64,000 nt of DNA from Elusimicrobiota bacterium (GCA_016194745.1 JACQBA010000013.1:128822-192821), one strand, 5' to 3'. Counted from the stretch's first letter, positions 6,875 to 58,200 are shown. Notes: generated by a model from the sequence alone, not told the origin. A program made the numbers and translations.

Positions 6875-8164
6875 GTGCCGCGAATCAAGACGGAATCGTA
6901 CTCCTTGCCGAACGGCATGCGCGTCGTCCTCGCGCCGGACCGGACCGTGCCGGTCGCGACCGTCTCGATGATCGTCAACGTCGGCAGCCGCTCGGAGCGG
7001 CCGGGACGCTCCGGATTCGCCCATCTGTTCGAGCACCTGATGTTCGAGGGCTCCCAGAACGTTCCGCGCGGCATGTTCGACAAGCTCCTGGAAAGCTATG
7101 GAGGCGACAACAACGCCTCGACCCACAAGGACTTCACGCACTACTACGAAAACGTCCCTTCCAACGCGCTGCCCGTGGCGCTGTGGCTCGACGCCGACCG
7201 GCTGAACGCGCTGGCCATCACCGATGAGGCCCGGGAGAACCAGATCTCGGTTGTCAAAGAGGAGAAGCGCCTCCGGATCGACAACGAGCCCTACGGCCCC
7301 GCGCTCTACGACGAGATCAGCGCGCGGTCCTACAAGAACTGGCAGAACGCCCATTCCACGATGGGCTCCTTCGAGGAACTGGAGGCGGCCTCGCGCGAGG
7401 ACGTGCAGGAGTTTTTCAACGCGAACTACGCCCCCTCGAACGTCATCCTGGGCGTCGTCGGCGACTTCGAGCCAGAGGAGATCAAGCCGCGGATCGAGAC
7501 GCTGTTCGGGCGCATCCCCAACCGCGGCAAGCCGGCGCCGGTGGACACCCGCGAACCCGACGGAGCGTTCACGTTCGTCAAGGGCTCCATTTCGGACGCC
7601 CACGCGAACCTGCCGGCGGCGGGCATCGCCTGGCGGGGCATGCCCGAGCGCGGGACGCGTGACTTCTACGCGCTGAGCCTGTTAGGCAGCGTGCTCTTCG
7701 GGGGCAAGAGTTCCCGGCTCTACCTCCGGCTGGTCAAGGATTCGCAGACCGCGATCTCGGTCGACGGCGGACTGGGGTTCCCCGAGACCGACTACTCGGA
7801 GTTCAAGGCGCCCGGCATCTTCGGGGCGTTCGTCGTGTACAAGAGCGGCCGCACGGCCGAGGACATCCTTCGGCTCATGGAGGCCGGCATCGGCGAGATC
7901 GCCGCGGACGGCGTCGGCGACGCGGAACTGGCGCGCATCAAGACGAAGTTCCGCTCAGACTGGATCCGCTCGCAGGAAACCGCCCTCGGCCGCGCGGGAA
8001 TGATCCTGCGCGCCGCCCTCCTCGACGGCGACGCCAAGGCCGCCGACGCGGATTTGGAGCGGTACTTGGCGTGCACTTCCGCCGACATCCGCGCCGCGGC
8101 GGCCAAGTACCTGACGCGGGAGCGCGCGATGCTTTTGGAGATCCTTCCCGAGGCCTCCGAATGA
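6875..8164 (+). CDS. M16 family (pitrilysin/insulinase) zinc peptidase, catalytic subunit
   Basis: 429 aa. Inverted zinc-binding motif HxxEH present (FAHLFEHLMFEGS) with a downstream Glu-rich region; typical M16 N-terminal domain. Confidence 0.85.
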   Translation: MPRIKTESYSLPNGMRVVLAPDRTVPVATVSMIVNVGSRSERPGRSGFAHLFEHLMFEGSQNVPRGMFDKLLESYGGDNNASTHKDFTHYYENVPSNALPVALWLDADRLNALAITDEARENQISVVKEEKRLRIDNEPYGPALYDEISARSYKNWQNAHSTMGSFEELEAASREDVQEFFNANYAPSNVILGVVGDFEPEEIKPRIETLFGRIPNRGKPAPVDTREPDGAFTFVKGSISDAHANLPAAGIAWRGMPERGTRDFYALSLLGSVLFGGKSSRLYLRLVKDSQTAISVDGGLGFPETDYSEFKAPGIFGAFVVYKSGRTAEDILRLMEAGIGEIAADGVGDAELARIKTKFRSDWIRSQETALGRAGMILRAALLDGDAKAADADLERYLACTSADIRAAAAKYLTRERAMLLEILPEASE

Positions 8165-25116: not shown

Positions 25117-26397
25117 ATGCCACAGAAAGCCATCCTAAAGTTCGACGGGAAGGAGTACGAGATCCCGATCGTCGAGGGGACAGAGGGAGAGAAGGCCCTC
25201 GACATCTCCAGCCTCAGGAGCCAGACCGGGCTCATCACCCTCGACAACGGCTACATGAACACGGGCGCCTGCACGAGCGCCATCACGTACTTGGACGGAG
25301 AGCGCGGCATCCTGCGCTACCGCGGCGTCCCGATCGAGCAGCTCGCGGAGCAATCGACGTTCGTCGAAACGAGCTATCTCCTGATCTACGGAAAGCTCCC
25401 CAACAAGCGCGAACTCGAGGCCTTCACCAACGGGATCACCCGCCACACGCTGATCCACGAGGACATGAAGCGCTTCTACGACAGCTTCCCGCACGACGCG
25501 CACCCGATGGCGATGCTCTCCTCGGCCGTCAGCACCCTTTCTACGTTCTACCAGAAGCCGGACGCGGCCGCGAGCATGAACCTGACGGTCGCACGGCTCC
25601 TCGGCAAGCTGCCGACGATCGCGGCTCAGTCCTACAAGAAGTGCATCGGGCAGCCGTTCGTCTACCCGGACAATCGCCTCGACTATTGCGGCAACTTCCT
25701 CAAGATGATGTTCGCGGTGCCCGCCGAGGAGTACCACGTCGACCCCGAGGTTTCGCGGGCGCTCGACCTGCTGCTGATCCTGCATGCCGATCACGAGCAG
25801 AACTGTTCGGCGTCCACGGTGCGCCTCGTCGGCTCGAGCCGGGCGTCTCCCTACGCGTCGGTCTCGGCCGGCATCTCCGCCCTCTGGGGCCCGCTGCACG
25901 GCGGCGCAAACCAGGAAGTCGTCGAGATGCTGACCGAGATTCGAAACAGCGGGACGTCGGTCCAGGATTTCGTAGCGAAAGTGAAGACGCGCGAGGGCGG
26001 CGCCAAGCTCATGGGCTTCGGCCACCGCGTCTACAAGAACTACGATCCGCGCGCCACGATCATCAAGCGCGCGACCGACACCGTCTTGAACAAACTCGGC
26101 ATCGACGACCCGCTCCTCGAGATCGCCAAGCGCCTGGAAGAGGCCGCGCTCAAGGACGACTACTTCGTCTCCCGCAAGCTCTATCCCAACGTGGACTTCT
26201 ACTCCGGGATCATCTACCGGGCGATCGGCATCCCGACCAACATGTTCACGGTGATGTTCGCCCTGGGACGACTCCCGGGCTGGATCGCCCAGTGGAAGGA
26301 GATGAGCGAGTCCCCTTCCTTTAGGATCGGCCGGCCGCGGCAGGTCTACACCGGCCCCAACGAGACGAAGTACACTCCGATCGGTCAGCGCGCCTAA
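25117..26397 (+). CDS. gltA: citrate synthase
   Basis: Start taken at MPQKAILKFDGKEYEIPIV. Citrate synthase signature regions (GFGHRVYKNYDPRA; HGGANQEV). 3' end overlaps the convergent DUF2063 gene by 4 nt. Confidence 0.9.
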   Translation: MPQKAILKFDGKEYEIPIVEGTEGEKALDISSLRSQTGLITLDNGYMNTGACTSAITYLDGERGILRYRGVPIEQLAEQSTFVETSYLLIYGKLPNKRELEAFTNGITRHTLIHEDMKRFYDSFPHDAHPMAMLSSAVSTLSTFYQKPDAAASMNLTVARLLGKLPTIAAQSYKKCIGQPFVYPDNRLDYCGNFLKMMFAVPAEEYHVDPEVSRALDLLLILHADHEQNCSASTVRLVGSSRASPYASVSAGISALWGPLHGGANQEVVEMLTEIRNSGTSVQDFVAKVKTREGGAKLMGFGHRVYKNYDPRATIIKRATDTVLNKLGIDDPLLEIAKRLEEAALKDDYFVSRKLYPNVDFYSGIIYRAIGIPTNMFTVMFALGRLPGWIAQWKEMSESPSFRIGRPRQVYTGPNETKYTPIGQRA

Positions 26398-27197
26398 CGG
26401 CGCACGCCCTTAACGACGCCGTTCGAGATCCAGTCTGAAAACCAGCGTTGGACCTCCGACGCCGAGGCATTCACGCGGGAGAGACTGGCGCCGAGCGTCT
26501 CGCCCGCGCGGAGGCGGCAGAGAAGGTCCCACCGTTTCGCGTCCAGTTCCTCGACGCGCACCCAGTCGTCCCGCCACACCAATAGCCGCGTCGGCGCCGG
26601 CCGCCGGAGCGTCCGTCCGGCTCGCCCCGATTCGTCGCGGCTCCGCCACAACCGATGCACCGGCCACCGCAGCCGAAGCAGGTCGACCGTCGTGTCGAGC
26701 GCTATCGCCGAGGCCGCCCAGGCGTCCGCAGGGAGAGCGGCGGTAGCCTCCGGAGTGAACGCCGGCAGCCGGTCTCGATAGAGGCGCTCCAGAGCGGACC
26801 TCTCTAGGAGCGCGAGGTCCGGTAGAAAGCCGAACGTCCGCGCGACCGGATGCTTCCTCAAGAACGTGGGGAAAGCCCCGCCCAGATCCGTCACGTTCGG
26901 GGACGTCGACGGTATCCGGCTCAGGAAGCCGGCGGCCAACTCGCGGAATGCGCGCTCGCCGACGGCGCGCTTGACCGCGCGATAGTCCGAGGCCAGGACC
27001 TCCAGCAGCCGCTCGAAGTAGCCGTCGGCGTAGACGGCGAGCCGCGTATGCCGGTCGATCGGCGGCGCCTCGACGATCCACGGCGCCCCCTCGGGACGGC
27101 GGGAGAGGGCCGCGGAGACCCCGCGCGGCTCGGTCAGGACGTCCGCCAGCCAGCGCTGGACGCGGACGAGCTCAGGCGGCGACGGCGAGCGCCCCAT
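26394..27197 (-). CDS. DUF2063 family protein (partner subunit of DUF692/MNIO enzymes; BufC-like)
   Basis: 267 aa. N-terminal LVRVQRWLADVLTEP region and overall length fit DUF2063 partners. Overlaps the upstream DUF692 gene by 26 nt, consistent with the co-operonic pairing universal for this family. Confidence 0.65.
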   Translation of the reverse strand: MGRSPSPPELVRVQRWLADVLTEPRGVSAALSRRPEGAPWIVEAPPIDRHTRLAVYADGYFERLLEVLASDYRAVKRAVGERAFRELAAGFLSRIPSTSPNVTDLGGAFPTFLRKHPVARTFGFLPDLALLERSALERLYRDRLPAFTPEATAALPADAWAASAIALDTTVDLLRLRWPVHRLWRSRDESGRAGRTLRRPAPTRLLVWRDDWVRVEELDAKRWDLLCRLRAGETLGASLSRVNASASEVQRWFSDWISNGVVKGVRR

Positions 27198-28017
27198 CGG
27201 CGACCTCCCGCGCGCGCCGCGCCTCGGCTTCGAGCCGCTCGAACGCTGGGATATTCCCGTCCCACTCGATCAACGCCGGAACTCCGCCGAAGCGCCGCGC
27301 CGCGTCGCCGAAGAGCGACCACACCGGATCCGAGATGGGATGGTCGTGCGTGTCGATCAAGAATCCTTCGGCGATCGAATAGCCGGCCAAATGCATATAG
27401 CCCACGCGCTCGCGCGGGATGGCTTCCAAGTATCGCCGCGGGTCGAAGCCGTGATTGACCGAGCTCACGTAAACGTTGTTGACGTCCAAGAGGACGCCGC
27501 AGTCGGCGCGGCGGGCGATCTCGGCGACGAACTCCCACTCGGTCATCGTCGAGTGGCCGTAGCTCAGGTAGGAGGAGACGTTTTCAAGAAGGATCCGCCG
27601 GCCAAGGAGGTCCTGGACCTTCCGAACGCGGGAAGCGACATGCTCGATCGCCCCCTCGTCGTAGGGCAGCGGCAGAAGATCGTGGAGGTTCCTCATGTCC
27701 ACGCCCGTCCAGCATAGGTGGTCGGAGACGTGCGCCGGCTCGACCAAGGCGACGAGCGTCTTGAGTCGCTTGAGATACTCCGCGTCGAGCGGGTCGACCG
27801 AGCCCACGTTGAGCGACACTCCGTGCAGCGCTACGGGATAGTCTCGGCGCACCGCCAGGAGCTTCTCGAGCGGCCGGCCGCCTGAGCCGCCCCGCGGTCC
27901 CATATAGTTCTCGGACACAGCCTCGAACCAAGGGACCGCGGGTCGGCGGTTCAGCACGTGCTCGTAATGCGGCGGCCGCAGGCCGAGACCGACCCCGGCG
28001 AGCCGCACCGAGCCCAT
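27172..28017 (-). CDS. DUF692 family protein: multinuclear non-heme iron oxidative enzyme (MNIO; MbnB/TglH/BufB family), TIM-barrel/xylose-isomerase-like fold
   Basis: 281 aa. LAGVGLGLRPPHY...FEAVSENYMG...HGVSLNVGS...DHLCW...LLENVSSY...HLAGYS...DTHDH: conserved His/Asp/Glu metal ligands in the spacing seen in MbnB-type enzymes. Start is 1 nt after the stop of the precursor gene. Confidence 0.8.
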   Translation of the reverse strand: MGSVRLAGVGLGLRPPHYEHVLNRRPAVPWFEAVSENYMGPRGGSGGRPLEKLLAVRRDYPVALHGVSLNVGSVDPLDAEYLKRLKTLVALVEPAHVSDHLCWTGVDMRNLHDLLPLPYDEGAIEHVASRVRKVQDLLGRRILLENVSSYLSYGHSTMTEWEFVAEIARRADCGVLLDVNNVYVSSVNHGFDPRRYLEAIPRERVGYMHLAGYSIAEGFLIDTHDHPISDPVWSLFGDAARRFGGVPALIEWDGNIPAFERLEAEARRAREVADGALAVAA

Positions 28018-28018
28018 G

Positions 28019-28327
28019 CTATTTCTTCTCCTCTTTCTTCGCCTCGACCGGCGTCAGCGACCCGCCCTCGATCGCGAGGCAGGATTCCTTCGGCATCGGC
28101 AGCCAGCCCTGGCCCTTGCACTTATTGGAGCCGGCGCACTCGTGCCCCTTGCCGCTGCACTTGCCGTGTCCGCCGCACTTGTTGACGCCGTAGCATGGGA
28201 CGTTCTTGTCCTTCGCGGCCTTGCCGCCCTTGTCGGACTTCTTCTCGTCCGCCATGCCGGGCGCCGCGACCGCGGCTCCCATGAGTCCCGCCACCGCCGC
28301 GCTGATGAGCATCTCGCGTTTCGTCAT
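28019..28327 (-). CDS. bufferin-like RiPP precursor: small secreted Cys-rich peptide, DUF2282/BufA-like
   Basis: 102 aa. Sec signal MTKREMLISAAVAGLMGAAVAAPGMA|DEKK. Core PCYGVNKCGGHGKCSGKGHECAGSNKCKGQGWLPMPKESCLAIEGGSL has 6 Cys in CYGx/CxG/CAG/CKGxGW spacing like DUF2282 precursors. Directly upstream of DUF692-DUF2063. Confidence 0.7.
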   Translation of the reverse strand: MTKREMLISAAVAGLMGAAVAAPGMADEKKSDKGGKAAKDKNVPCYGVNKCGGHGKCSGKGHECAGSNKCKGQGWLPMPKESCLAIEGGSLTPVEAKKEEKK

Positions 28328-28929
28328 TTCTTGTCTCCTTTAGTCTCCGATTTCTCCTGGAGCAGCCCTTCGATCTCCAGAGTCATCTTCACCTCGTCCC
28401 CGACTAGGACTCCGCCGGCCTCGACCGCCGAATTCCACGTGAGTCCGAAATCTTTGCGGTCGATCTTGCCCGTCGCGGTGAATCCCGCATGCTCGCGCCC
28501 ATACTTGTCCTTCGTGACGCCGTTGATCTCGAGGTCGAGCGGGATCGTCTTCGTCGTCTCGAGGATCGTGAGCTTACCCCAGAGCTTGGCGCGACTTCCT
28601 TTCATGTCCGATATCTTGGTCGAGACGAAGGTGATCTTCGGGTGCTTCTCCACATCGAAAAAATCCGGCGAGCGAAGGTGCCCGTCCCGCTTCTCGACTT
28701 TCGTGTCGATGCTCGCGGCGTCGATCGACGCCTGCGTCTTCCAGGACGCCGGCTTTCCCTTCTCGTACGAAAACGTGCCTTCGAACTTGTTGAACTGCCC
28801 CATGACGTGCCCGACCAAGTGCCGCACGCGGAACATCACCGTGCTGTGGTCCGGATCGATCACATAGTCGGCCGCGCGCAAAGGCGCCGCCGCGGAAACG
28901 AGCAGCACGGCCATCGTCAATCGCATCAT
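28324..28929 (-). CDS. YceI family periplasmic protein (lipid/polyisoprenoid-binding barrel)
   Basis: 201 aa with signal peptide MMRLTMAVLLVSAAAPLRAADY. Typical YceI N-terminus (YVIDPDHSTVMFRVRHL...) and barrel strands. Stop overlaps the precursor gene start. Confidence 0.8.
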   Translation of the reverse strand: MMRLTMAVLLVSAAAPLRAADYVIDPDHSTVMFRVRHLVGHVMGQFNKFEGTFSYEKGKPASWKTQASIDAASIDTKVEKRDGHLRSPDFFDVEKHPKITFVSTKISDMKGSRAKLWGKLTILETTKTIPLDLEINGVTKDKYGREHAGFTATGKIDRKDFGLTWNSAVEAGGVLVGDEVKMTLEIEGLLQEKSETKGDKK

Positions 28930-29118
28930 GTCTGCCTCCTCAACTGAGTGCGCATTGAACCAAAAATGTTACAGGGTGTCATCCGCCGTACGCGCGCCGA
29001 AACAACGCAGGCCCTTGCGCCCATTTAGGACGGTGGCCAACGGCCCCTCCCTCGGGATGCGATCGGCCCATGCCCCGCGGGCGGCGATGTCCTATTCTGT
29101 CGTCGGAGGACGCACCCC

Positions 29119-29637
29119 ATGAACAAATACGCCTTTGCCGTGCTGATGTTTGCCGCCGGTTTTGGACATGCCCAGACGGCCGAGGAGGTCTGGGTCGAGC
29201 AGGCGCCCATGCGCGCCCTCATGAAGAAGGTCATCGATCATGACGACTTCAAGGTCATGCCGATGATGGGCGCGCAGGGATACTACGAGCTCAAGAGGAC
29301 CGTCCCCGACTCCAATGGCGGCCGCGCGGTCGATTTCGTGACCGTCTGGGGCAATCGAGGCGTCGACGGCTTCGGGATCACCGAGGTCCAACTCGGCTCG
29401 GAGCGCTGGTCCGTTGTGGGACCCGATCGCGTCTACGTGGACAACTGGACGTTCGAGCTCTCGCCTAACGGAGAGAAGCGAGGCTTCGGGCATAACTTCA
29501 TGGTCCAAGCGGACGGCGGCCGCGTCGACGAAATAGGCGGACTCTTCCCGCGCCGAGACGGAAGAGTGGACCTCGAAGGCGCCCGCGCCGAGGCGAGGGC
29601 CAAGCTCGCCCAATTGATCGAGTTTTGGAACAAGTAG
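29119..29637 (+). CDS. hypothetical secreted protein
   Basis: 172 aa. Signal peptide MNKYAFAVLMFAAGFGHAQTAEE. Balanced composition, unlike the overlapping minus-strand ORF 29092..29952, which is Arg/Gly-rich junk. Confidence 0.5.
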   Translation: MNKYAFAVLMFAAGFGHAQTAEEVWVEQAPMRALMKKVIDHDDFKVMPMMGAQGYYELKRTVPDSNGGRAVDFVTVWGNRGVDGFGITEVQLGSERWSVVGPDRVYVDNWTFELSPNGEKRGFGHNFMVQADGGRVDEIGGLFPRRDGRVDLEGARAEARAKLAQLIEFWNK

Positions 29638-29709: not shown

Positions 29710-30591
29710 ATGATCCGTCCGAGCGGGAGGCTCCTCCGGTATTTCGCCGCGTGCTGGCTGTTGGCGGCGCCCGCGGCCCTCGCGGCGGAGCCCCGGTTCC
29801 GGATTCTCCTGGCGCCGGACGTCCCCGTCGACGCCAAAGCCGCCGCCGACCTGGACCGCGTCCGCGGCATCCTTCGCGAGACCTATCCGCTCCTGCCGGA
29901 GAACCTCCGTGCCCTCGCGGCCGAGATTACGTACGTGATCCACCGGGAGCATCCGATCTACGCGCCGGCGTGGTCCGCGGAGGACGATCCGGAATACATC
30001 TTCCCGGACACGAACTTGTTCCCGGCGGGGACGATCAAGGTGAACGTCTCAAAGCACTTCCTCGAGTGGGTCGAAGGCCTCGCGGACGCGAGAGCAGCCG
30101 GGACGCAGCCCGCGGTCGCGGCGCGCAAGATCCACGGCACGATCGCCCACGAGCTCGAGCACGCCCGCCGCTACCGTACCGACCCCATCCCCGACCTCAG
30201 GGTCCCGGACGCCTGCCCGGAGGGACTCTGCCGCCTGGACCTTATAGAAGGAGAGGAGCTCAAGTTCCGGCACGAACGGGAGACCGCGGAACTCGAGGAA
30301 TCGCTGTTCCGCGACGGAGCGCTCGTCGACTTTCGCCGCGAGACTAGAAATTACCGCGCCGCCTTCGAGCCCCCCAAACTCGTTTGGGCGGTCAAGCGGG
30401 CCAACGACGCCCTGGAGTCGGGCGGGGCGCAGGCTCGCGAAGGCGCCCCGGTCCGCGTGAAAACCTGGCGCTCGGACTGGGAGTTCTATACGAACGTACC
30501 GCGCGTCCTTGAGGCCCATCCCTACCTGAAGCAGGTCCAAGCGCGATTTGAGGCGGAGATCGCCCGGCACCTGCGCCTCGCCGCCGAATAG
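29710..30591 (+). CDS. hypothetical secreted protein with HExxH motif (putative zinc metallopeptidase-like)
   Basis: 293 aa. Signal peptide (LLRYFAACWLLAAPAALAAEP); HExxH motif in GTIAHELEHARRY with a downstream Glu-rich segment. No family assigned. Confidence 0.5.
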   Translation: MIRPSGRLLRYFAACWLLAAPAALAAEPRFRILLAPDVPVDAKAAADLDRVRGILRETYPLLPENLRALAAEITYVIHREHPIYAPAWSAEDDPEYIFPDTNLFPAGTIKVNVSKHFLEWVEGLADARAAGTQPAVAARKIHGTIAHELEHARRYRTDPIPDLRVPDACPEGLCRLDLIEGEELKFRHERETAELEESLFRDGALVDFRRETRNYRAAFEPPKLVWAVKRANDALESGGAQAREGAPVRVKTWRSDWEFYTNVPRVLEAHPYLKQVQARFEAEIARHLRLAAE

Positions 30592-31285: not shown

Positions 31286-32743
31286 CTAGCGCGATTTGCC
31301 ATGGCCGTTGCCGCCGTGCGTCTCGATGCTGAGGTTGACGTCCGCCGGCGTGAAGTACAGCTGCGCCGTGCCGCGGCTCAGCTTGTCGAGCGCCTCCTGC
31401 TTGCGCAGCAGGCGGAACAGCTCGACCTTGTCCTCGGCCGAGAGGGACGGATTCAGGCCGTCGAGAAAGCCGTTGACGCGAAGTGCCTCGGCTTCCCCCG
31501 CCATCTGCCCTTCCGCCTTCACGTGCTCGCGCTGCATCTCGAGCAGGCGGCCGCGCAGGGACTCGGCCTCCATCTCGCCCGACAGCTGCTTGAGCTTCAC
31601 CTCGTTCTCGCTTTCCTGCTTCTGGAGCCGGTTGAGACGGTCCGTGGTCTCCTGGATGATCTCGGCCAGAGTGTTCTGCGTCGCGGCGTCCTTGCAGGAG
31701 ACCGACCGGACCTCCACGGCATGCAGCACCACGCCCCGCTCGGCGTAGAACGCGTCCAGCCGGCCCATCACCGCGTCCCGGACGATGCCGTTGAATTTCG
31801 CCAGGAACTCTTCGAGCGTCGTCTGGGAGACCGCCTGGATGATCGCGCTGCGGGCGTGCGAACACGTGTCCCCCGGCGCGTCGTCGGTCGTGCGGATCAT
31901 TTTCTCCACGTCGACGATCTGCCAGAAGAACGTGATGTCGATGAGGAGCTCGACGTTGTCCTGCGTCCGCGCCGTCATCTGGAACCACATGAACTTGGGC
32001 CGCGTGTCGAGATGCGTGACCTCGAGTCCTCGTTCGTTCTTCAGCACGCCGGTCGACCATCTCATGGAGACCAGCTCGCTGAAGGGAGGCAGGAAAAACG
32101 ACCTCTCCTCGTCCGTACCGCGCCGCAGCGAGAACCGCCCGTCCTTGTCCTTGATGACCACGGTCTCGTGGTCTTCGAGCCGCACGCGCCGACTCACCTC
32201 CACAATCTCCTCGTTGGGAGCCGGGACGAACGCCTGCGGCTCGGTGACGAGCTGCAGGCCGCCGGTGGCCCTGTCGCGGAGGACCACGGCCAAATCCTCG
32301 CCGATATTCACGGCCTCGCACACCATCCGCCTTTGCCCGGGAGCCTCAAGGGCCTTCTCCGTCGGTCCGAGATAGACCGTCTGCTCCCCGCGTTCCACGC
32401 GGATGACGCCGGTCCGCCCGTCCAGGAGACGGACGTATTCCCCCTTCTTTAAGGTAATCGCCGACAGCGTCTCGAGAACCTCCTCGCTCGCCTTGAGGAA
32501 CAATAGAGTAGGGCCTCGGACCATCTTCAGGTCGCCGGTCAACGTGTCCCGGACTCTCGCGTAGTCCATCGGCCCGAGCAGGGTGCCCTTGCGGCGGGTC
32601 ACCCAGTGCAGGGGCGGCGTCACGTAGACCCGAGGACCGTCGATGGTCCAGCGCGTCGTAAGCCCTTCGATCAGGAGCTGCTCGTCTTCCTTCAAGAAAA
32701 ACACCCAAGGGATCATGATTGCCTCCGCCGTCCTGGCAAGCAT
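31286..32743 (-). CDS. SPFH/band-7-like protein with N-terminal repeats resembling major-vault-protein repeats, and C-terminal coiled coil
   Basis: Start uncertain (32743 or 32716; the ORF runs to 32782). Repeated modules of ~50 aa (GEYVRLLDGRTGVIRVERGEQTVYLGPTE; VVIKDKDGRFSLRRGTDEERSFFLPPFSE). SPFH-like core (LLIDITFFWQIVDVEKMIRTT...). Coiled coil (LNRLQKQESENEVKLKQLSGEMEAESLRGRLLEMQREH). Confidence 0.45.
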   Translation of the reverse strand: MLARTAEAIMIPWVFFLKEDEQLLIEGLTTRWTIDGPRVYVTPPLHWVTRRKGTLLGPMDYARVRDTLTGDLKMVRGPTLLFLKASEEVLETLSAITLKKGEYVRLLDGRTGVIRVERGEQTVYLGPTEKALEAPGQRRMVCEAVNIGEDLAVVLRDRATGGLQLVTEPQAFVPAPNEEIVEVSRRVRLEDHETVVIKDKDGRFSLRRGTDEERSFFLPPFSELVSMRWSTGVLKNERGLEVTHLDTRPKFMWFQMTARTQDNVELLIDITFFWQIVDVEKMIRTTDDAPGDTCSHARSAIIQAVSQTTLEEFLAKFNGIVRDAVMGRLDAFYAERGVVLHAVEVRSVSCKDAATQNTLAEIIQETTDRLNRLQKQESENEVKLKQLSGEMEAESLRGRLLEMQREHVKAEGQMAGEAEALRVNGFLDGLNPSLSAEDKVELFRLLRKQEALDKLSRGTAQLYFTPADVNLSIETHGGNGHGKSR

Positions 32744-32915
32744 AGCCGGCCCTCTCCCGGGACTCCATCGGACTATGGTCAACGGGCTCCGTGATTGTCG
32801 TCACGCTCCGATCGTGGAAACGGAGTTTCGCCTGCGAAGGACCCAAGCTTCGAAGACCCTCTCGGCTCATGCGCCCCGCCTCCGATAGAGGTATGCTCTG
32901 GAAAAGGAGCCTTGA

Positions 32916-49239: not shown

Positions 49240-52200
49240 CTAACGACCGGCGTCGTCCGGCTCGCCGGCGCGCGGCAAAACCCGGCGCGACACGATCTTG
49301 ATGCCTGTCTTGGAAGAGGCCTTCGGCGCGCGCGCGCGGTGCTCTGCGCCGGAGGCGGCCACGGGCTGAGCGCCCTTCTGCGTCGCGGCGTTCTCCAGTC
49401 TTTTGACCTTGAAGTGAGCCCAGAATGTGCCCATGAGGAATACCGCAGAGACGCCGGCTCCCGCCGTGAACTGGAGGGCGCTGATCGCGCCGTTGCTCAA
49501 CAAGAATCCGAAAACCGGGATGCTCGAGGCGCTTCCGTAGAGGCTTCCCAACAGCAGCATCCGCTTTTTCTCAATGAGCGACTGCGGTATGGCGGCCAGG
49601 TTGCCGGAAGCACCCAAGAGCTGACTGCGGATGTCGATCCCCTCGATGGTTTCTCGATGGAAATACATCTGGCCGAAAAGCGCGGGGAGCCCGTAAAACA
49701 TCATCACGATCCGGTTCACCGTGACGATATTGTCCCAGCGCAGCGCCTTCCGCCAGCGCGAGACCTCCGAATCTCCGGTGCGGCTCCAGAGCATCGCCCC
49801 GCCCACCGCCAGTGCGGCGAGTCCGGGCAGAAACGAAGCGTTTCCATCCACGAGGAACGCAAGGCCTTGACCGAGCGCAGCGAAGCCCGTCAACTCCGTC
49901 GCGCGCACGATCTGATTCCAACGGCGCTCGCTCATCCATCCCCTTTCCTTTAAGAAGTAAGCCGCGACGTTTGTCACCTGCAGCCCGACCACCGGCACGG
50001 CCGCGACCATCGCCCAGGCCGGCATGATGAGCGCCGCGCCGGCCGGCGCCATCCACTGGCCGAGCCAGAGCGTTCCCACGATGAAGGAGGCCGCGACGAC
50101 AGCGGAGGCCTGCATCACCGGGCCGGCGACGGAAAGCTTGTTGATGAGGCGATCCACCCAGTTGTGCTCCTCTATCACCTTCGGCTTCTCCCTCGCGTAG
50201 TCGTGGAGCACGTGGAGGTTCACGAAATTGCCGATCACGTACGCCGCCCACGGGATCGCGGCGAGTTTCGTCACGGCGGCGGCCGTTCCCTGGTACAGCA
50301 GGTCGACGTTCGTTAGGAACTGAGGGATGTGGATTCCCATGAACGCCAGCGTTCCGCCCGCCAAGAGGATGACCGCAGCGGCGCGCCACGTCCGGATGCC
50401 AGCGGGCGCCGCGGGACGGATGCCGCCGGGCCGCGACGGCGGCTCGGGCGTGCGGCGGATGTCGTCCTTCGGCGCGGCCGGCTCCGGCTTGTCCTTCGCC
50501 GGCGTCTCGTCGAATCGCGCCCCCTTCAAACTGCGCGCGGGACCGTAGACGCGGTACGCGAGCTCGGCCAGGTCCGGCCTAGAGCGCAGGAGCGAATCGA
50601 GAGTCGAGATGCGCCGCCCCCAGTCCGACAGGATGTCGAAGTAGGCGGACGTCAGCTGCGCGAAGAGCTCATGCTCGTCCTGTTTCGCGTAGGTCCCGAG
50701 CATGTCCTTGGCCGGGATCTCCTCGGTCATCTTGAACGCGGTCTTGACCTCGTGGTCGGAGACGGGGTCCCGCGACGCGTCCTTCGCGAGCCGGTCCAGC
50801 CGAGCGAGCCGGCCGCCAGTCCGCAGGCGATCGGCGACGCCGGAGAACCGCTCCGACCACGTCGGCCGGCGCTGGCCGAAGTCCCTCTTGCCGGCCCACT
50901 CCAGAATCGGCGTCATGCCGTGCATGTGGACCATGTGTCCCAATTCGTGCACGAAGACCTCGTTCGTCTTGTAGCCCTCGTGCGTCTTCATCAGCGTCCT
51001 CTCGCTGACGACGAAGGCGTATGAGCCGTCCTCGGCCTTAAATTGGAAGGCGACCCCATCCAGGTCCCGATACAGGCGGCCGTCCTTGGTATGGACGGGA
51101 AGGTTGCGCGCGATGGTGAGATCGGTCAGACTCCACCGCTCCGGAAACACGATCGCCGTGACCCGATTCACGACCATATTCTTCAAAATGAGCGGGTCCA
51201 CCCGACGCAGCACCTCCTGCATCAGGAACCGAGCCTGCAGTAGCGCTTCCTCTTTGACGCCCCACTCCTTGCCCGTGATCCTGTCCTGAAGGATGGCGAT
51301 GTTAGCGTCGCGGTCGTACTCGGCGGCGGCGCGGCGCTCCCCGACCCATTCGCGGAGGAACGCCCCGTACTGCACCCCAACATCGCGCCGCGCGGAGCCG
51401 AGAAGCTCCATGACCCCGTCGTAGATCCTAGTCTTCGCCGGATCATTGCGGAGTTCCCTTAAGAACCGGGTTCCTACGTCGACCGGCGCCTGCTCGAGCA
51501 GGCGCACGCGCATCATCGCGGCATCCAGGATTTCGTTGCGCTCCATGATCGCGTTCGTCGGACGCTCCGCAGGGCGGTTCCACCAGATCCACATCGACTG
51601 CAGCGGCTCGGCGATCGACAGCCTTCCGTCTCGGTCCCTGACGAACTCCATCTCGTACCCTCGGCGATCGTGACGGGAGTTAGGATAGACAGAGGAATCG
51701 CCGCGCAGCCGCCCTAGGAACTCTTCCAGGTCCCTAAACGACGCGTCGGTGACGGGCCATGTCCGATCGCCGACGACCTTATCGGTCACCAGGAAGAGCC
51801 TCCCTTCCGGCGACTCCCATACGCCATGAAACTCAGGCGAAAGCCCCTCGGCCGCAATCGTCTCCGCGGTCCTCGCCTTCCGGGCGAGAGTCTGTTCCCA
51901 GCCCTCCGTCCCGAGAAAGTCCTTGTAGAACGGATGGAGCTCGACGGTCCGCCCGTCGCGAAGAACGCCTTCCAGGACGCTCCAGTCCCACCGGCTCTCG
52001 TAGCCCGTCCTCAACGTGACGCCCGTCATCCGTTCGACGGGCGCTTTCGGGACATCGTCGAACGTACGGAAAGTCCTAACGTCGCGCCGCGGACGAGGAC
52101 CGCCGCCGGTCGGACCTTCCTCCGGACGCGGCAGCATCGCCGGCAGGATGATCGACGCCGTCACGAGCCCGCCTGAAACCGTCGAATCGATGAGAGTGAG

Positions 52201-55200
52201 CGCGCCGGCCGCGCCTAGAACCAAGGCAATCCCTACGCCTCGCGATACGCGGCCGAACGTCGCGCGAGATTGCGCCGGGCGGTTCTGCGCCCCGTTCACG
52301 TACTCTGAAAGCTGAGCATGAGTGAGTCCAGTCGCCTCGGGCTTAGCCGAGACGGCCTTGTCGACCCAGACCTCGAAGCGGGCGCGATCAAGCCCGGCTA
52401 CGCCGCTGTCCCGGAGCCAATTGGCCGTCTGAAGCAGGAACCGCGCGGGAGGCTCATAGTGGCCGGACCGGTCGTTAAAGACCACGCCCTCGCCGCCCAC
52501 GACAAACTCCCCCACCCCGGCGACTTTCCGGCCGCCGGAGAGCGAGCTGTGCTTCCATTCGCGCCGGTCCGGCACGAGCCGCGCGATCCAGCGCCCGATC
52601 GCGGTCCGAGACGCCGGCGCAGGCGCGTTCATCGCCACCGCGTAGAGGCCGAGCGGATGATCGGCGCTCGGCACGAGGACGAACAGGTAGCGGCCCCTCG
52701 GGAGCTTTTGGCCCGCCGCATCGACGGGATCGCCGAACCGGTCGAAGGAGACCCGGTACGCCTTTCGCTGCGCGTCGCCCAAGCCGTATTCCCTGCCCGC
52801 GAAGAGCTTCTTGTGCATTAAATAGATGCCCTGATTTCCTTCCATGGCCCGCCACTCGAGGCGCCCGAATTCCGGCGCGCTCCGCCGCTTGCCGAACACG
52901 GGGGCGCCGGGCGCCGCCGCAGGCGCGCGGACCGCGCCCGAGGCGGACGGTTCCGAAATCCGCCGCGAGGAGAGGAGGCTCCGCACGCCTCGGACGACGG
53001 CTACGACGGCGATCGTGGCGAGCGCGGCCGCGCCGAAGTCGACCAGAAGCGACGCGTCGATGAGATGCCGGACGCCGAACTCCGCCGCATGGGCGCCGCC
53101 GATCATCTTCGGGCCAAGGAGTCCCCCGAAGGCGCCCCACGCCGCCAAGGTCGCCATGCCGCGCCACCTGCCTCCGGCGGGGCGAGGCGGCTCCGGCGCG
53201 GGCCGGCTCGTCGCCGGCGCCGAGCTCTCCGGGGCTACATGCTCCTCGGGATGCGCCATATGCACGCGACCCAGCGCCACCATGCGCTCGTAGGCCCGGC
53301 GCAGCGGCATGGGATCGACGCCTAGGAGCTTCGCGTACTCATAGATGTGCCGCGTGAAGATCGCGTTCTGCTCCGCCGGAATTTCGCTGCGATGGGGAGG
53401 CGCTTCGGTCGAGTCGAAGTCGAACGCGACCCACAGGTTCATGTTGTCGCGGCTTCGCACCGTGGAGATCCCCTCGCGGCCGGTATAGAGGCCCAGGCGT
53501 GTATTGATGATGTGGGAGAAGACGGCGTACTGAGCCGCCGACCGGAGCAGCAGCCGGTTGGCCGCGGCCTTGAACTTGGGCGAGCCGTGGTCGCCGGAAT
53601 ACTCGAGACCCATCCGGCGGAAATACGGCGCGAGGAGCTCCGGCTCGCGCAGAATCTCCGCGAGCCTTGTGGGCAAGAGCGCGCTGTAGGCCGTCAGCGT
53701 ATGCGTATCGACGATCCGGCGCGGGACAGAACCGATATGCTCCAGCGCGGCGCCGTGTCGTACGATCACGACGCCCTTCGGCGCGGCGACGCCCTTGATC
53801 TGGAATCGCTCGCGCCAAGCCCTGCCGGCGTCGGTCTCGTGCTCCACGAAAACGGGCACGCCGATCGGCTTGAAGGCGGCGGCGGGATTGATGAAAACAT
53901 CCGAATTGCCGCCGAGTTTCCGCGCCGCGCGGAGCGCCCAATCCCCGCTGCGCTCCGCCACCTGGTACGTCGCCTCCATCTCGGAGAGCTTGAGCTCCGG
54001 CGCGTGGCTCTCCTCCTGGCCGCCTCGGAACGCCTGCGTGTTGATCCTCGCGCTGGCGTCGTAGCGGAAGCCGAGCACGAGGCCATCGCGGCGCGCCTTA
54101 TCCTCCTCCGCTTTGACTCCGACTCCCTTGACGACCGTATGCCACGGCGCCGGAGGCCCGCTCGCCTTGTCTTCGGAATGCAGGGAGCGGTTGTGAGTCC
54201 TGCTGCCGACATACGGGCTAGGGTCCTGTAGCGGCACGAGGAACACGTCTTTGACGTCCGTGTTGCCCGCCGCCAGATACTCCGAGAGCGCCTTGGGATC
54301 GGCCCGCCAGAGAATCTCTCCCTTTCTACCGAGCTGATCGGAGAGCGGGATCACGTGACCGTTGCGGATCATCTCGGCAAGCCGCACCTCGTCGAAGATC
54401 CGGTCGATCCGCGCCGGGACCTTCACCGAGCCCGGGATCTCGGTCCCGATGCCCGCGTCCGGGTGGGTCGTGTCCTTGAGTGGCGGGAGGTTCGGGAACT
54501 CCGCGTCGATCGCGAGCTGCGTCAGGCGCAACAAGTTCTCGCCCGGCCGCCCCGTCATGAGCGCACGCACGTCCGACTCGAACCGGGAGGATCCCGCCAT
54601 CAATCCCGGGGCCGCCAAGACGACGTCGAGAAGCGCCGGCTCGTTCGCGGCGAGCTCTCGCGCGGCCGCGAAGGCGCGGACAGTCGCCTCGAATTGCGCT
54701 TCGCTGAGCCCGGATTTCGAAAAGCGCTCGGCGAACGCCTCGACCGACGGTTCCGCGGCGCGAGTCCACCTGTAGCGCCAACCCATATCGTCGTCCCGCA
54801 CGACCACGTCTCCGCCTACTTCGAGCCCCACCGTCGCCGAGCGAGTACGGTGGTTCGAGGGGAGCGTCTGTACGAGCTGGAGGTCCCTGAATACCCGGAG
54901 GCGCTGAGCCCGATCGAGGACGTAGACGTCACCGCGCGGATCGGAGGCGATCGAGAGAATCCGGTCGAAATGGGCGTCGTCTAGACCCGTCTCTCCGACC
55001 TTGCCGAATACCGCCACGCGCTTCAACCGGGCCTCGCGTCCGCTCTCAAGTTCGAAGACCTGGACCATGTGAGTCTCCGGCATCATCACATGGATCCGAT
55101 GCTTGCCGTCGACCACCGCGTCCGTGATCAACCCGGTCCGCTCGTTTCCGAAATCCGGCGAGGCCGCACCGATCCTCTTGAACTCCCCGCCGGACGCGGC

Positions 55201-58200
55201 GCCATCGTGGATCACCACGCTTCCGGCGCGGGAAACGACGACGATCCGTCCCTGGGAGTCGACGAACCCGGTCCGCCAGTTGCTCCGCTGGAAGTCCTTG
55301 ATCACACCCGCCGGCTTTAGCTCCGCGTCGAAGACGTCGATTTGGGCGTAATAGTTGTTCGGCACGAACAGCCGGCCGCGGCCGTCGACGAAGCCGTGGT
55401 CGCAGTGGAGGCACTCGAGCAGCGGAAGTTTCGACTTGCCGTCGGCTTCGAAGACGCGCACGCCCTTCAGCTCGGCGTCGTACCAGAACGACCGGCCCGC
55501 GCGATCCGTGGCGATGTGCTTCAGGCTCGAAAGCTTGTCGACGCGCTCGACCGGTTCGAGGCGGGACGCGCTCGCTGTCCCCTCAGGACCCTTGAGCGCC
55601 GCGCGAAGCTCGGAGGCGCGGACATCCGGGGGCTTAGCTTGGACGGTCGTCGTTTCGCGCGGTGCGACTGAGACTTCGCGATCGGCGTCTGCGCGATCCT
55701 GCGCCGCACGAGGACGAGCGGCCAGGAACAAGAATCCGCTGCGGCGGTCCACGCCCAAGAAACGTTGCCGCGAGGAACCGCGCATGCCCGGCCGCGAGAA
55801 GATCGCGGCGCCGGAGAAAGCAGTCTCCTTCGTTTCGAATCTGCCCTTGAACTGCTCCGGGCCGGCGCCGTCGCTGAACGACCAGTAGACCCCGTTGCGC
55901 GTGAGTTGGGCGTCGACCGCGGCGACGAGCTGGTCATGATCCCCTACCGGTAGCCGAGCGAACATGAGATCGGCCTTGGGCACGAGCGCTCCGGCCTCGG
56001 CAGTATGATGGACGCCGACGCCTCGCGGCGGGAAGCTCGTCATCGCTCGGTCCGGGATCACGGACACTCGGCGACGCGCGTCCCTGTAGAGAGTCCACGG
56101 ATTGAGGTACTTGAGTCCCCCGCGCAGCAGCACGTCCGGATTTCGCGCCAGCATCTCCCCCCACACGCCCACTAGGAAGCGCGGGAAGCTGGTGACCTGA
56201 CCATACGCTCCGCCCCATCCCTGGTTGCCGGGCTCGCTGACGACGATTCGGATGTCCGGACGCGCCATCAGCGGGATCGTCCACTCGTAATGGTCGTTGC
56301 CGGTGCCCGTCGCGTGGTATACCCCGTTTTGCGGGAGGAGACTGCGGTCCCGGAATATATCGTAGAGGACGCGCACGACGCCCTTGCCGGACAGGATATG
56401 CGCGTTGAAGCGCTCGACGTGGGCGTCAACGGGCCGCTGCTGCGCGTTCCCGGACTCGCTTCGTCCCGCGCGCTCGGCGCCGCGGCCGAACGCGTAGGAG
56501 AGGAGCCGCCTCGCCGCCCAGACCGCGCCGAGGGCCGCCAGGCCGAGCCCGCCGCTGACGAACCAGTCAGCGGCCACCATGGCCGGCGTCGACTCGAACC
56601 CGGCCTGCGCGACGCCGATGAATTCCCTCGCGAAGGTGAGCGCGCCGCCCGCGACGCCGAGCCACGCGAGCGCGTTCTTCGCCCGCACCGCGCGGTGCCA
56701 AACGTCCTTGTCGGTCCGAGCGGGGATATTGTCCGCGTCGAGCATGAAGTCGTCGTACATCTTGCCTTCGCCGAGGCCGTTCAGGCGGTTGATGCGGCGG
56801 CTTGCATTGCTCCACTCGGAGCTCAAGTCGACGCGGCCGCCGAAACGCGTCGCCATGAACTGCTCCGCCATTCCGAGCGGCCTCGAGAAGCGGGCTTCGA
56901 TCGAGTTGAGCAGGGCCTCGGCCGCGGGGCCCGTTCGCTGACGGAAGTAGAGATTGAGAAGCGTCGCCGGCTTGCCCTTCTCATTGAGAGCGAAGCCGCC
57001 GAAGGCGAAGCCGATCGCTCGCGTGCGGCCGGTGCCCGGGATCGGTTCCTCGACCAGGAACACAAAGGAGAGCGGGTCCCGCCACAGCATCGGCACGTGC
57101 GTCCTGCCGTCCGCCTTCCCGCTCGAGAAGCAGCAGGTCACAGCGTCGCCGAAGCGCATGAGCGGCAGGAGGTCCGCGGCCTTGTCCAAGTAGCGCAGAG
57201 TGACGGTCTTCGGCATCGTCGCCTTGCCGCCCGCGCGCGCCTTCTGGAGCTCGGCGAGCTGGCGGAACGCGTCGTTGAGCTCCCGCTCGACGCCGATCAG
57301 CCGCTCGCGCGCGAACGCGGGCACGCCCCGCTCGAACATCGTGGAGAGCAGGTATCCCAGCAAGGTCCCTGGCTCCACGGCGTTGTTCTTGCGTCCGATC
57401 TCGTCGTGGCGTTCCTCGACCCTGGCTCGGTCCTGGCCGGCGCGTTGGCGCACCTCGCGAGCGATCGCGGCGCGCTCGGAGCTGAGGCGGGCCAGGAGCG
57501 CCGCGGCGGGAGTCGCGTTGCGGTCGGACTCGAGCACGGATTGGAGCGGAAGATCGGGCAGCCCTTTCTTCACCCCGGCCTGCCAACGGGATTCCAGCCG
57601 GCGGACCGCCTGAGCGGCGAGGTCGGGGTGCTCTTCCTCGGCTCGGCGGAGCGCCGCGGCGAGCGTGGCCCCGTCCTTCGCGCGCTCGATCGCCTCCGCG
57701 GCCGACGCGTGAGCGGCGGCGCGCAGCGCCTCGACATAGGCGACGGACTTGAGCAGCGCCCCCACGGCGCCGCGGCCCAGGACCTCCCCGATCTGCTCTT
57801 CCAAGAGCCGGAGGGCTTCCGCGTCCGAGACGTCGATGCGGACCTGCCATTGCCGCTCCTCTCCCAGAGGGAACCGACCCTCGCGCAGGCGGTTGACGAT
57901 CTCCTTGGCCTTTTCGGACGAGAGACCTTGGGCCGTCAATGCGGCCTCGAGTTCACGCGCGGGACCCTCGACCCTCCAGCCCCGGCTCGCGTTGTTCAAC
58001 CGCTCCTGGAACTCGCCGAACGTGAAGTCGTGCGACAGAAACTCCACTTGGCCGCCCTTATAAAGGAAGTAGGCGACCGATTCCGCTCGGGAGGTCATGA
58101 GCCTGCTCAGCAGAGCGTCCGGGTCGCGAATGCCGGAGAGCTCCCGCCCGATCTCCGCCGCGCGGTCCAGGACGGCGGCGGGCTCTCGGCCGATGTCGAG

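Follow-up and report, generated by a model that had tools for sequence, protein, structure and literature searches.

The 64,000-nucleotide window analysed here (GCA_016194745.1, JACQBA010000013.1:128822-192821), from an Elusimicrobiota bacterium, very probably carries a bufferin cluster of the Buf2 type, bufA2-bufB-bufC, which is headed by a dedicated yceI gene in the same operon. Bacteria very widely use bufferins, which were recognised recently, to cope with copper. Taken by itself the locus is routine, one more ordinary case of a Buf2 family that has been described before; the yceI at the head of the operon is a genuine accessory, conserved and in essence undescribed, and the architecture yceI-bufA2-bufB-bufC is likewise undescribed. 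The system to compare is the buf2 operon of Caulobacter vibrioides (CCNA_02999-03001), which has no gene like bufD1 and encodes a six-Cys precursor that bears a Sec signal (PMC11626156); its family was named BUF_6/12Cys and is now called Buf2 (PMC11626156, PMC12452194), and a follow-up survey found six conserved Cys in 90% of Buf2 precursors (PMC12452194). In Caulobacter Buf2, CysI and CysVI carry no modification and probably form a disulfide, each of the four Cys between them shows a shift of -4.03 Da, the main product is the -18 Da form, and copper induces the system, which gives a growth benefit under copper (PMC11626156). The buf1 operon of the same organism (bufA1B1C1D1) encodes a four-Cys DUF2282 precursor, a multinuclear non-heme iron oxidative enzyme (MNIO), a DUF2063 protein and DoxX (PMC11626156).

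A first-pass annotation of this DNA had proposed four tightly packed minus-strand genes that form a bufferin-type operon for a peptide made by ribosomes and modified after translation (RiPP), with a Cys-rich precursor, an MNIO and a DUF2063 partner. The open reading frame (ORF) list and the sequence agree exactly with this arrangement, and the Pfam and NCBIfam profiles agree with the assignment. The yceI/bufA2 junction is ATGA, a 4-nucleotide overlap, bufA2 and bufB are separated by 1 nucleotide (TAG c ATG), the bufB and bufC ORFs overlap by 26 nucleotides, and a Shine-Dalgarno-like GGAG/GAGG lies 5-10 nucleotides 5' of each of the four start codons. The stop codon of bufC (minus strand) overlaps that of a convergent citrate synthase gene (plus strand) by 4 nucleotides (26394-26397), therefore leaving no space for a terminator between the two genes, and no DoxX gene was found in the window cluster, where bufC is followed by this citrate synthase gene. 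The same four genes in the same order are also present on two independent assemblies of sequencing runs, and the window peptide is identical to a protein from an Elusimicrobia metagenome-assembled genome (MAG). The four ORFs do not arise by chance, because three of them have strong profile matches and the peptide has 106 homologues, with the Cys kept across the 31 that were aligned.

As a forward test of the yceI linkage, an alignment of 31 peptide homologues was used to collect the 80 most similar loci, one genome per species (numbered L below), which were searched with the four window proteins by tblastn. Among the 77 loci with at least 700 base pairs (bp) of upstream DNA, 40, from about ten phyla, have yceI directly upstream of bufA2 on the same strand, and three further loci have it elsewhere in the cluster; in all 43 the gene lies on the operon strand. 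When all ORFs within about 5-6 kilobases (kb) of the related operons were clustered without supervision, just four families were widely shared, namely YceI, BufA2, BufB and BufC (which clustered together with overlapping ORFs). Neither DoxX nor cytochrome b561 was found as a conserved neighbour of the related operons, and no DoxX-like hydrophobic ORF follows bufC in them. On a BufB tree the loci bearing yceI fill one large subclade, made up of Omnitrophota, Planctomycetota, Myxococcota, Binatia, Thermodesulfobacteriota, a Leptospira/Bdellovibrionota group and part of the Elusimicrobia, and the Acidobacteriota, Proteobacteria and Polyangia branches lack yceI. Through changes of gene order yceI remains beside bufA2: the order is bufA2-yceI-bufB-bufC in L020 and bufB-bufC-bufA2-yceI in L029 and L094, Leptospira loci keep yceI-bufA2 with bufBC inverted, and L018 keeps yceI-bufA2 with no bufBC within 8 kb.

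In the reciprocal test, an alignment of the linked YceI was used to collect the 80 most similar YceI loci from metagenomes. Of 64 loci in which the downstream DNA was long enough, a single one had bufA2 directly downstream of yceI, and that locus was the best match; one further locus had a permuted cluster. Most YceI of similar sequence are not linked to a bufferin, and we therefore dropped the simple reading in which YceI as such is the bufferin partner, preferring a specific subclade instead. A tree of 125 YceI sequences (45 linked and 80 unlinked) placed a linked protein as the nearest neighbour of all 45 linked sequences and a free one as the nearest neighbour of 77 of the 80 free sequences. 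One clade of 36 leaves holds 35 linked YceI, and the 36th lies on a contig that ends 1 bp past yceI. Because the tree separates linked from free YceI in this way, the linked proteins are a distinct lineage that is inherited together with buf2. The first-pass annotation had regarded the leading yceI as a difference from the described layout that may mark a variant, and on this point the comparison of relatives, with the separate YceI clade, supports it.

Some related loci carry further genes. Tandem bufA2 copies stand behind a single yceI in L012, L049, L061, L062, L064, L073 and L074, which fits published two-precursor clusters. Directly after bufC and on the same strand, a gene like that for cytochrome c oxidase subunit III (PF00510) is found in L031, L032, L037, L042 and L054, all of which bear yceI; cytochrome c oxidase is a copper enzyme complex. 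Another group (L009, L013, L026, L028, L031, L062 and others) has a mercuric-reductase-like pyridine-nucleotide disulfide oxidoreductase with a C-terminal Cys-Cys, a PHO4-type transporter, an 841-residue radical-SAM/methyltransferase fusion whose tail is rich in Cys, or a CMD protein resembling AhpD; every one of these occurs in 5-7 of the 80 loci.

In the literature searched, no relevant paper joining YceI with DUF692, MNIO or bufferin was found, and the single published mention of YceI in a bufferin cluster is a supplementary legend that concerns one Legionella genome (PMC12452194). The linkage may have gone unnoticed because the bufferin survey counted an unrelated gene only if the intergenic distance was at most 10 bp (PMC12452194), whereas in most relatives the YceI tblastn match ends about 20-360 bp before the bufA2 match begins. 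The Legionella case (L. pneumophila subsp. fraseri, CA927_RS07990) is similar to ours in that a YceI gene lies inside a bufferin cluster, but YceI is accompanied there by a cytochrome b gene, which is not adjacent in the window, and it is a single case, whereas the linkage described here recurs in about half of the nearest relatives and involves a dedicated YceI clade.

The window YceI matches Pfam PF04264 (E 5e-49, 166.9 bits, cut-off 23.7) and starts with a hydrophobic Sec-type signal (MMRLTMAVLLVSAAAPLRA, followed by AD); it is a YceI-family lipocalin with the polyisoprenoid/quinone-binding fold and, judging from its sequence, probably periplasmic. Its best solved relatives are TT1927b (1WUB; E 5e-40 over 167 residues) and E. 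coli YceI (1Y0G), and the linked YceI retain the general motifs common to these two proteins. No residue strictly diagnostic of buf2-linked YceI was found in comparison with unlinked YceI; the differences between the two groups are graded only, as at position 114, which is A/G in the linked and Y/F/L in the free proteins. Members of the family bind ubiquinone-8 or polyisoprenoids and are tied to protection from lipid peroxidation (PMC9113575, PMC8981238): Burkholderia BcnA acts with cytochrome b561 against lipid peroxyl radicals (PMC9113575), and quinone-binding domains resembling YceI are found, too, in proteins for which a transfer of electrons to copper enzymes has been proposed (PMC8981238). 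BcnA/LcoA, TT1927b, E. coli YceI and Neisseria GNA1030 thus belong to the same fold family as the window protein; all of them are secreted or periplasmic, have isoprenoids or ubiquinone-8 as ligands and are connected with envelope or oxidative stress. BcnA/LcoA differs in that its usual partner gene is cytochrome b561 and not a RiPP cluster, and the buf2-linked YceI form a separate clade.

The N terminus of BufA2 (MTKREMLISAAVAGLMGAAVAAPGMA, followed by DEKK...) has a charged n-region, a hydrophobic core (mean Kyte-Doolittle value of 2.0 over 12 residues) and a site of the A-x-x-x-A type; the AP-x-x-A site and the hydrophobic core are kept in the 31-homologue alignment, and a Sec signal is presumably cleaved after APGMA (A26). 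The Cys are residues 45, 51, 57, 64, 70 and 83 (C-x5-C-x5-C-x6-C-x5-C-x12-C). The motif given in the first-pass annotation was right in its overall pattern, and two of its spacers were off by one, since the sequence has x5-ECAG, not x6, and CKGQGW-x7-C, not x8. In the alignment of 31 sequences, five of the six Cys columns reach a conservation of at least 90%, and C57 is kept in all but one of the aligned sequences, the exception having a gap there. By analogy with Caulobacter Buf2, C45 and C83 are predicted to be the disulfide pair, and C51, C57, C64 and C70 the thiooxazole sites. An AlphaFold2 model of the peptide has an order of secondary structure (a strand with C45 and a short helix with C83) that matches the published description, although the model is too weak to serve as evidence, and a Foldseek search of the model against PDB gave no match.

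The window peptide scores 62.5 bits on the NCBIfam model NF050166 (Cu_RiPP_BufA2), a marginal pass of its cut-off of 60, and six relatives score 60.8-73.5 bits; its likeness to Caulobacter BufA2 is drawn from this profile and from the published description. A Pfam scan of the full-length peptide gave no match, and its core alone reached 21.2 bits (E 2.8e-4) on DUF2282, under the gathering score of 22.4. The sub-threshold match of the core explains the conflict between the empty full-length scan and precomputed tables from a newer Pfam release, which tag the window peptide as PF10048 BufA1; such a tag on a peptide that passes the BufA2 model implies that the two precursor families overlap at the profile level. 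Some homologues of the peptide are named 'DUF2282 domain-containing protein' by NCBI. Membership in Buf1/DUF2282 was rejected on these scores and on the six Cys in place of four. The DUF2282-like precursor and the comparison with buf1 in the first-pass annotation must therefore be replaced by BufA2, and its two supposed marks of a variant subtype, six Cys (PMC11626156, PMC12452194) and a missing DoxX gene, as in Caulobacter buf2 (PMC11626156), are published hallmarks of Buf2. Among the profile searches that it had proposed for three of the proteins, those for the MNIO and the DUF2063 protein gave clear matches, and the one for DUF2282 stayed below threshold.

BufB matches Pfam PF05114 (MbnB_TglH_ChrH; E 1e-106, 356.2 bits, cut-off 25) and passes the NCBIfam model NF050167 MNIO_BufB ('MNIO family bufferin maturase') with 365.6 bits against a cut-off of 310, and falls under the cut-offs of the HvfB, ApyH, MbnB and ChrH models; HvfB is the second-best NCBIfam model (259 bits, cut-off 360), and MbnB gives 73.7 bits (cut-off 325). 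The iron ligands in the crystal structure of MbnB, His54, His90, Glu133, Asp163, Asn166, His192, Asp208, His210 and Glu239 (PMC9060507), align in BufB with H65, H100, E145, D178, N181, H209, D222, H224 and E251. Alignment of E251 with Glu239 requires a two-residue shift, which is backed by an ERD/EWD motif common with 3BWW. Across 68 BufB relatives the nine positions show no variation or almost none (at least 66 of 68 agree), and the window BufB looks catalytically competent because all nine MbnB ligands are kept. BufC has an N-terminal DUF2063 domain (PF09836; E 4e-19, 69.1 bits, cut-off 27.2) and a weak C-terminal match to NGO1945_C, a domain resembling the RiPP recognition element (PF22106; E 0.0015, 19.4 bits, under the cut-off of 27). 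It reaches 60.4 bits on the NCBIfam HvfC model (cut-off 142), and a sequence search of BufC against PDB gave no meaningful match. Two other MNIO systems were considered and rejected: oxazolin/Hvf by the HvfB and HvfC scores and the absence of EGKCG repeats from the window peptide, and methanobactin by the MbnB score and a partner that is a DUF2063 protein, not MbnC.

The window cluster has in common with Caulobacter buf2 a six-Cys precursor, here with a predicted Sec signal, a BufB-type MNIO, a DUF2063 partner, the A-B-C order and the lack of DoxX. It differs in that bufA2 is preceded by a translationally coupled yceI, the genome is an Elusimicrobia MAG rather than that of a proteobacterium, and a sigmaF-type promoter and sigF/nrsF genes were not found in the window. 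Caulobacter buf1 is comparable in its MNIO and DUF2063 enzymology and in its small folded precursor, whose export by Sec is predicted for the window peptide too, and its copper buffering is, as published, periplasmic; however, buf1 has four Cys, passes DUF2282 and ends with the membrane protein DoxX, whereas the window has six Cys, a sub-threshold DUF2282 score and no DoxX, with a soluble periplasmic YceI in the accessory slot. The oxazolin system HvfABC of Haemophilus influenzae also uses an MNIO with a DUF2063-type partner on a Cys-rich, copper-binding secreted protein, but the Hvf precursor has EGKCG repeats and the window proteins stay under the HvfB and HvfC cut-offs.

For regulation, a sigma-70 promoter scan of the operon region in the window found no site. 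The Caulobacter sigmaF motif is GTAACC-N16-CGAA (PMC3511200), and we searched for a relaxed form, GTAACC-N15-17-CG(T/A)A. It had no match upstream of the window operon, and was found upstream of yceI in 6 of 43 yceI-led operons (L008, L015, L022, L035, L038 and L074) and upstream of bufA2 in 7 of 39 loci without a full-length yceI (L040, L046, L050, L058, L059, L075 and L077), the control rate being 10 of 3710 windows (0.27%). Where the motif exists yceI is promoter-proximal, which fits co-transcription with the bufferin genes. The next-commonest neighbour family after the four shared ones is an extracytoplasmic function (ECF) sigma factor, whose gene lies nearby on either strand in 17 of the 80 loci, yet according to the survey Buf2 clusters contain no sigma factor genes.

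How YceI is tied to the bufferin can be read in more than one way. It may be a co-regulated bystander, a general envelope stress lipocalin that shares a promoter responding to metal or oxidative stress and has no interplay with the bufferin, and we take this as a serious possibility, though one that falls short of probable. The family does act elsewhere, for example in the cytochrome b561 pairing mentioned above (PMC9113575), similar YceI rarely stand beside bufA2 in metagenomes, yceI has been lost from several close relatives in which bufA2BC is intact, and the linked YceI have no bufferin-specific residue. On the other hand, the linked proteins group in a clade of their own instead of being spread among free YceI, and adjacency to bufA2 survives the inversion of bufBC, an insertion between bufA2 and bufB, and the loss of bufBC from the vicinity. 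Such a pattern is more typical of partners than of members of a regulon, although it is no proof of contact. Because the adjacency is specific to bufA2 and the YceI clade is a dedicated one, we favour a real functional tie between yceI and the bufferin, which does not imply physical contact.

The remaining alternatives concern the peptide and its modification. That the modified peptide serves another metal (mercury, cadmium or chromate-related stress) or has a redox or thiol-stress role, and does not buffer copper, seems unlikely to us: the buf operons of Caulobacter were first seen to be induced by chromate, dichromate and cadmium (PMC3511200), MerC-bufferin fusions exist (PMC12452194), and genes for a MerA-like disulfide oxidoreductase, a radical-SAM/methyltransferase or an AhpD-like protein lie near some related loci, but Caulobacter reporter fusions are induced by Cu, with no response to Fe, Zn or Mn, growth under copper is better with Buf2 alone (PMC11626156), and these neighbours are each limited to a few loci, with none in the window. 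We consider it very improbable that the MNIO makes oxazolone-thioamide pairs, first proposed for oxazolin/Hvf and found in methanobactin, in place of 5-thiooxazoles. The enzymes are homologous, with HvfB as the second-best model, and the two products reportedly have the same mass and are hard to distinguish; against this, BufB passes its own cut-off and fails those of HvfB and MbnB, nuclear magnetic resonance data on Buf1 supported thiooxazoles (PMC11626156), and later preprints reportedly favour 5-thiooxazoles for bufferins, and do so even in the case of the Haemophilus protein. The least probable reading, to which we give hardly any credit, is a new Buf1/DUF2282 subtype marked by six Cys, the lack of DoxX and the presence of YceI. 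The weak core match, the PF10048 label and the NCBI names of homologues would speak for it, but the BufA2 cut-off is exceeded, DUF2282 is not reached, and six Cys with a DoxX-less bufA2B2C2 is the published definition of Buf2.

Several observations weigh against our interpretation of the locus as a copper-related Buf2 operon with a dedicated YceI. The BufA2 model is passed by just 2.5 bits, and the AlphaFold2 model of the peptide, built from the 31-sequence alignment, is of low confidence (predicted local distance difference test score, pLDDT, of 60), leaving the fold and disulfide pairing unconfirmed. Neither promoter nor regulator was found in the window, which leaves copper regulation there unproven, and the flanking genes are housekeeping genes, with metal-resistance genes not among them. 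Caulobacter Buf2 was studied experimentally, whereas the Elusimicrobia bufferin is known here from its genes alone. As for YceI, the window protein and the other linked proteins have no Cys, and no diagnostic or extra conserved metal-binding residues were found in them; residues 141-145 of the window YceI (28495-28509) are DKYGR where the family has a nearly invariant DPWG(N), a motif present in TT1927b and E. coli YceI. The 80 loci are those closest to the window peptide, and the 52% with yceI directly upstream is not a figure for the whole Buf2 family. Within the Elusimicrobia, yceI is present in the window and in L003 and missing from four relatives; L005, of the same group, keeps upstream of bufA2 (7777-7990) an in-frame deletion remnant in which yceI residues 36-75 are joined to 166-195, pointing to a recent loss. 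Because the close Elusimicrobia relatives mostly have no yceI, and one has a remnant, the gene is dispensable for the core system.

The course of events that we infer for this operon, by analogy with the Caulobacter systems, is as follows. BufA2 would be synthesised with its Sec signal peptide and be presented in the cytoplasm by the partner BufC to the iron enzyme BufB, which with O2 would convert the four central Cys (C51, C57, C64 and C70) to 5-thiooxazoles. Sec would then export the modified BufA2, the signal would be removed after A26, and the C45-C83 disulfide would form, so that a small folded bufferin could chelate copper in the periplasm and buffer copper stress. The chemistry, the choice of modified Cys, the export and the copper binding at this locus are all carried over from that analogy. 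YceI, whose lipocalin barrel is of a type that holds an isoprenoid quinone or a lipid, would be co-exported. We hypothesize that it is most likely a periplasmic helper in the same stress response, which may limit copper-driven damage to membrane lipids or may serve the bufferin as a small redox or carrier partner. A bolder and tentative idea, possible though on the unlikely side, is that YceI of this distinct subfamily serves Buf2 as a dedicated partner in the periplasm of many non-proteobacterial phyla, where an isoprenoid quinone that it carries could set the redox state of the thiooxazole/copper centre or the protein could act as a bufferin carrier, making it the soluble counterpart of the membrane protein DoxX of Buf1.

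The coordinates of the operon are given in Table 1. The window has a G+C content of about 66%. Divergent from the operon, two plus-strand ORFs with signal-like N termini gave no Pfam match (29119-29637 and 29710-30591); the latter contains an HELEH (HExxH) motif and may, judged by this motif, encode a secreted metalloprotease-like protein. Farther along, a minus-strand gene (31286-32782) encodes a 498-residue protein with matches to Band_7/SPFH and to the Major Vault Protein (MVP) 'shoulder', and a weak Major Vault Protein repeat, a mix of domains unusual for a bacterium. A single minus-strand ORF of 4890 residues (49240-63912) fills the last quarter of the window.

Table 1 Positions, in the window, of the yceI-bufA2-bufB-bufC operon and its parts
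Feature	Position	Strand	Basis or remark
yceI, 201 residues	28324-28929	minus	Pfam PF04264 and sequence
bufA2 precursor ORF, 102 residues	28019-28327	minus	NCBIfam NF050166
bufA2 signal peptide, residues 1-26	28250-28327	minus	read from the sequence; predicted cleavage after APGMA
bufA2 core, residues 27-102 and stop codon	28019-28249	minus	Lys-rich linker, then six Cys
bufB (MNIO), 281 residues	27172-28017	minus	PF05114, NF050167, nine MbnB ligands
bufC (DUF2063 partner), 267 residues	26394-27197	minus	PF09836
Region upstream of yceI, 189 bp, common with the divergent gene	28930-29118	minus	presumed site of the operon promoter

The locus itself adds little to what is known of Buf2, and the lead it offers is testable rather than surprising. 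The bufferin clusters described so far consist of a precursor, an MNIO, a DUF2063 protein and sometimes DoxX, and yceI adds to these, in a large Buf2 branch, a fourth component that recurs. Researchers on bufferins thereby gain a candidate periplasmic partner, and those on YceI a defined genetic context; if the tie is true, YceI proteins, whose physiological role is still unsettled, would gain a defined partner.

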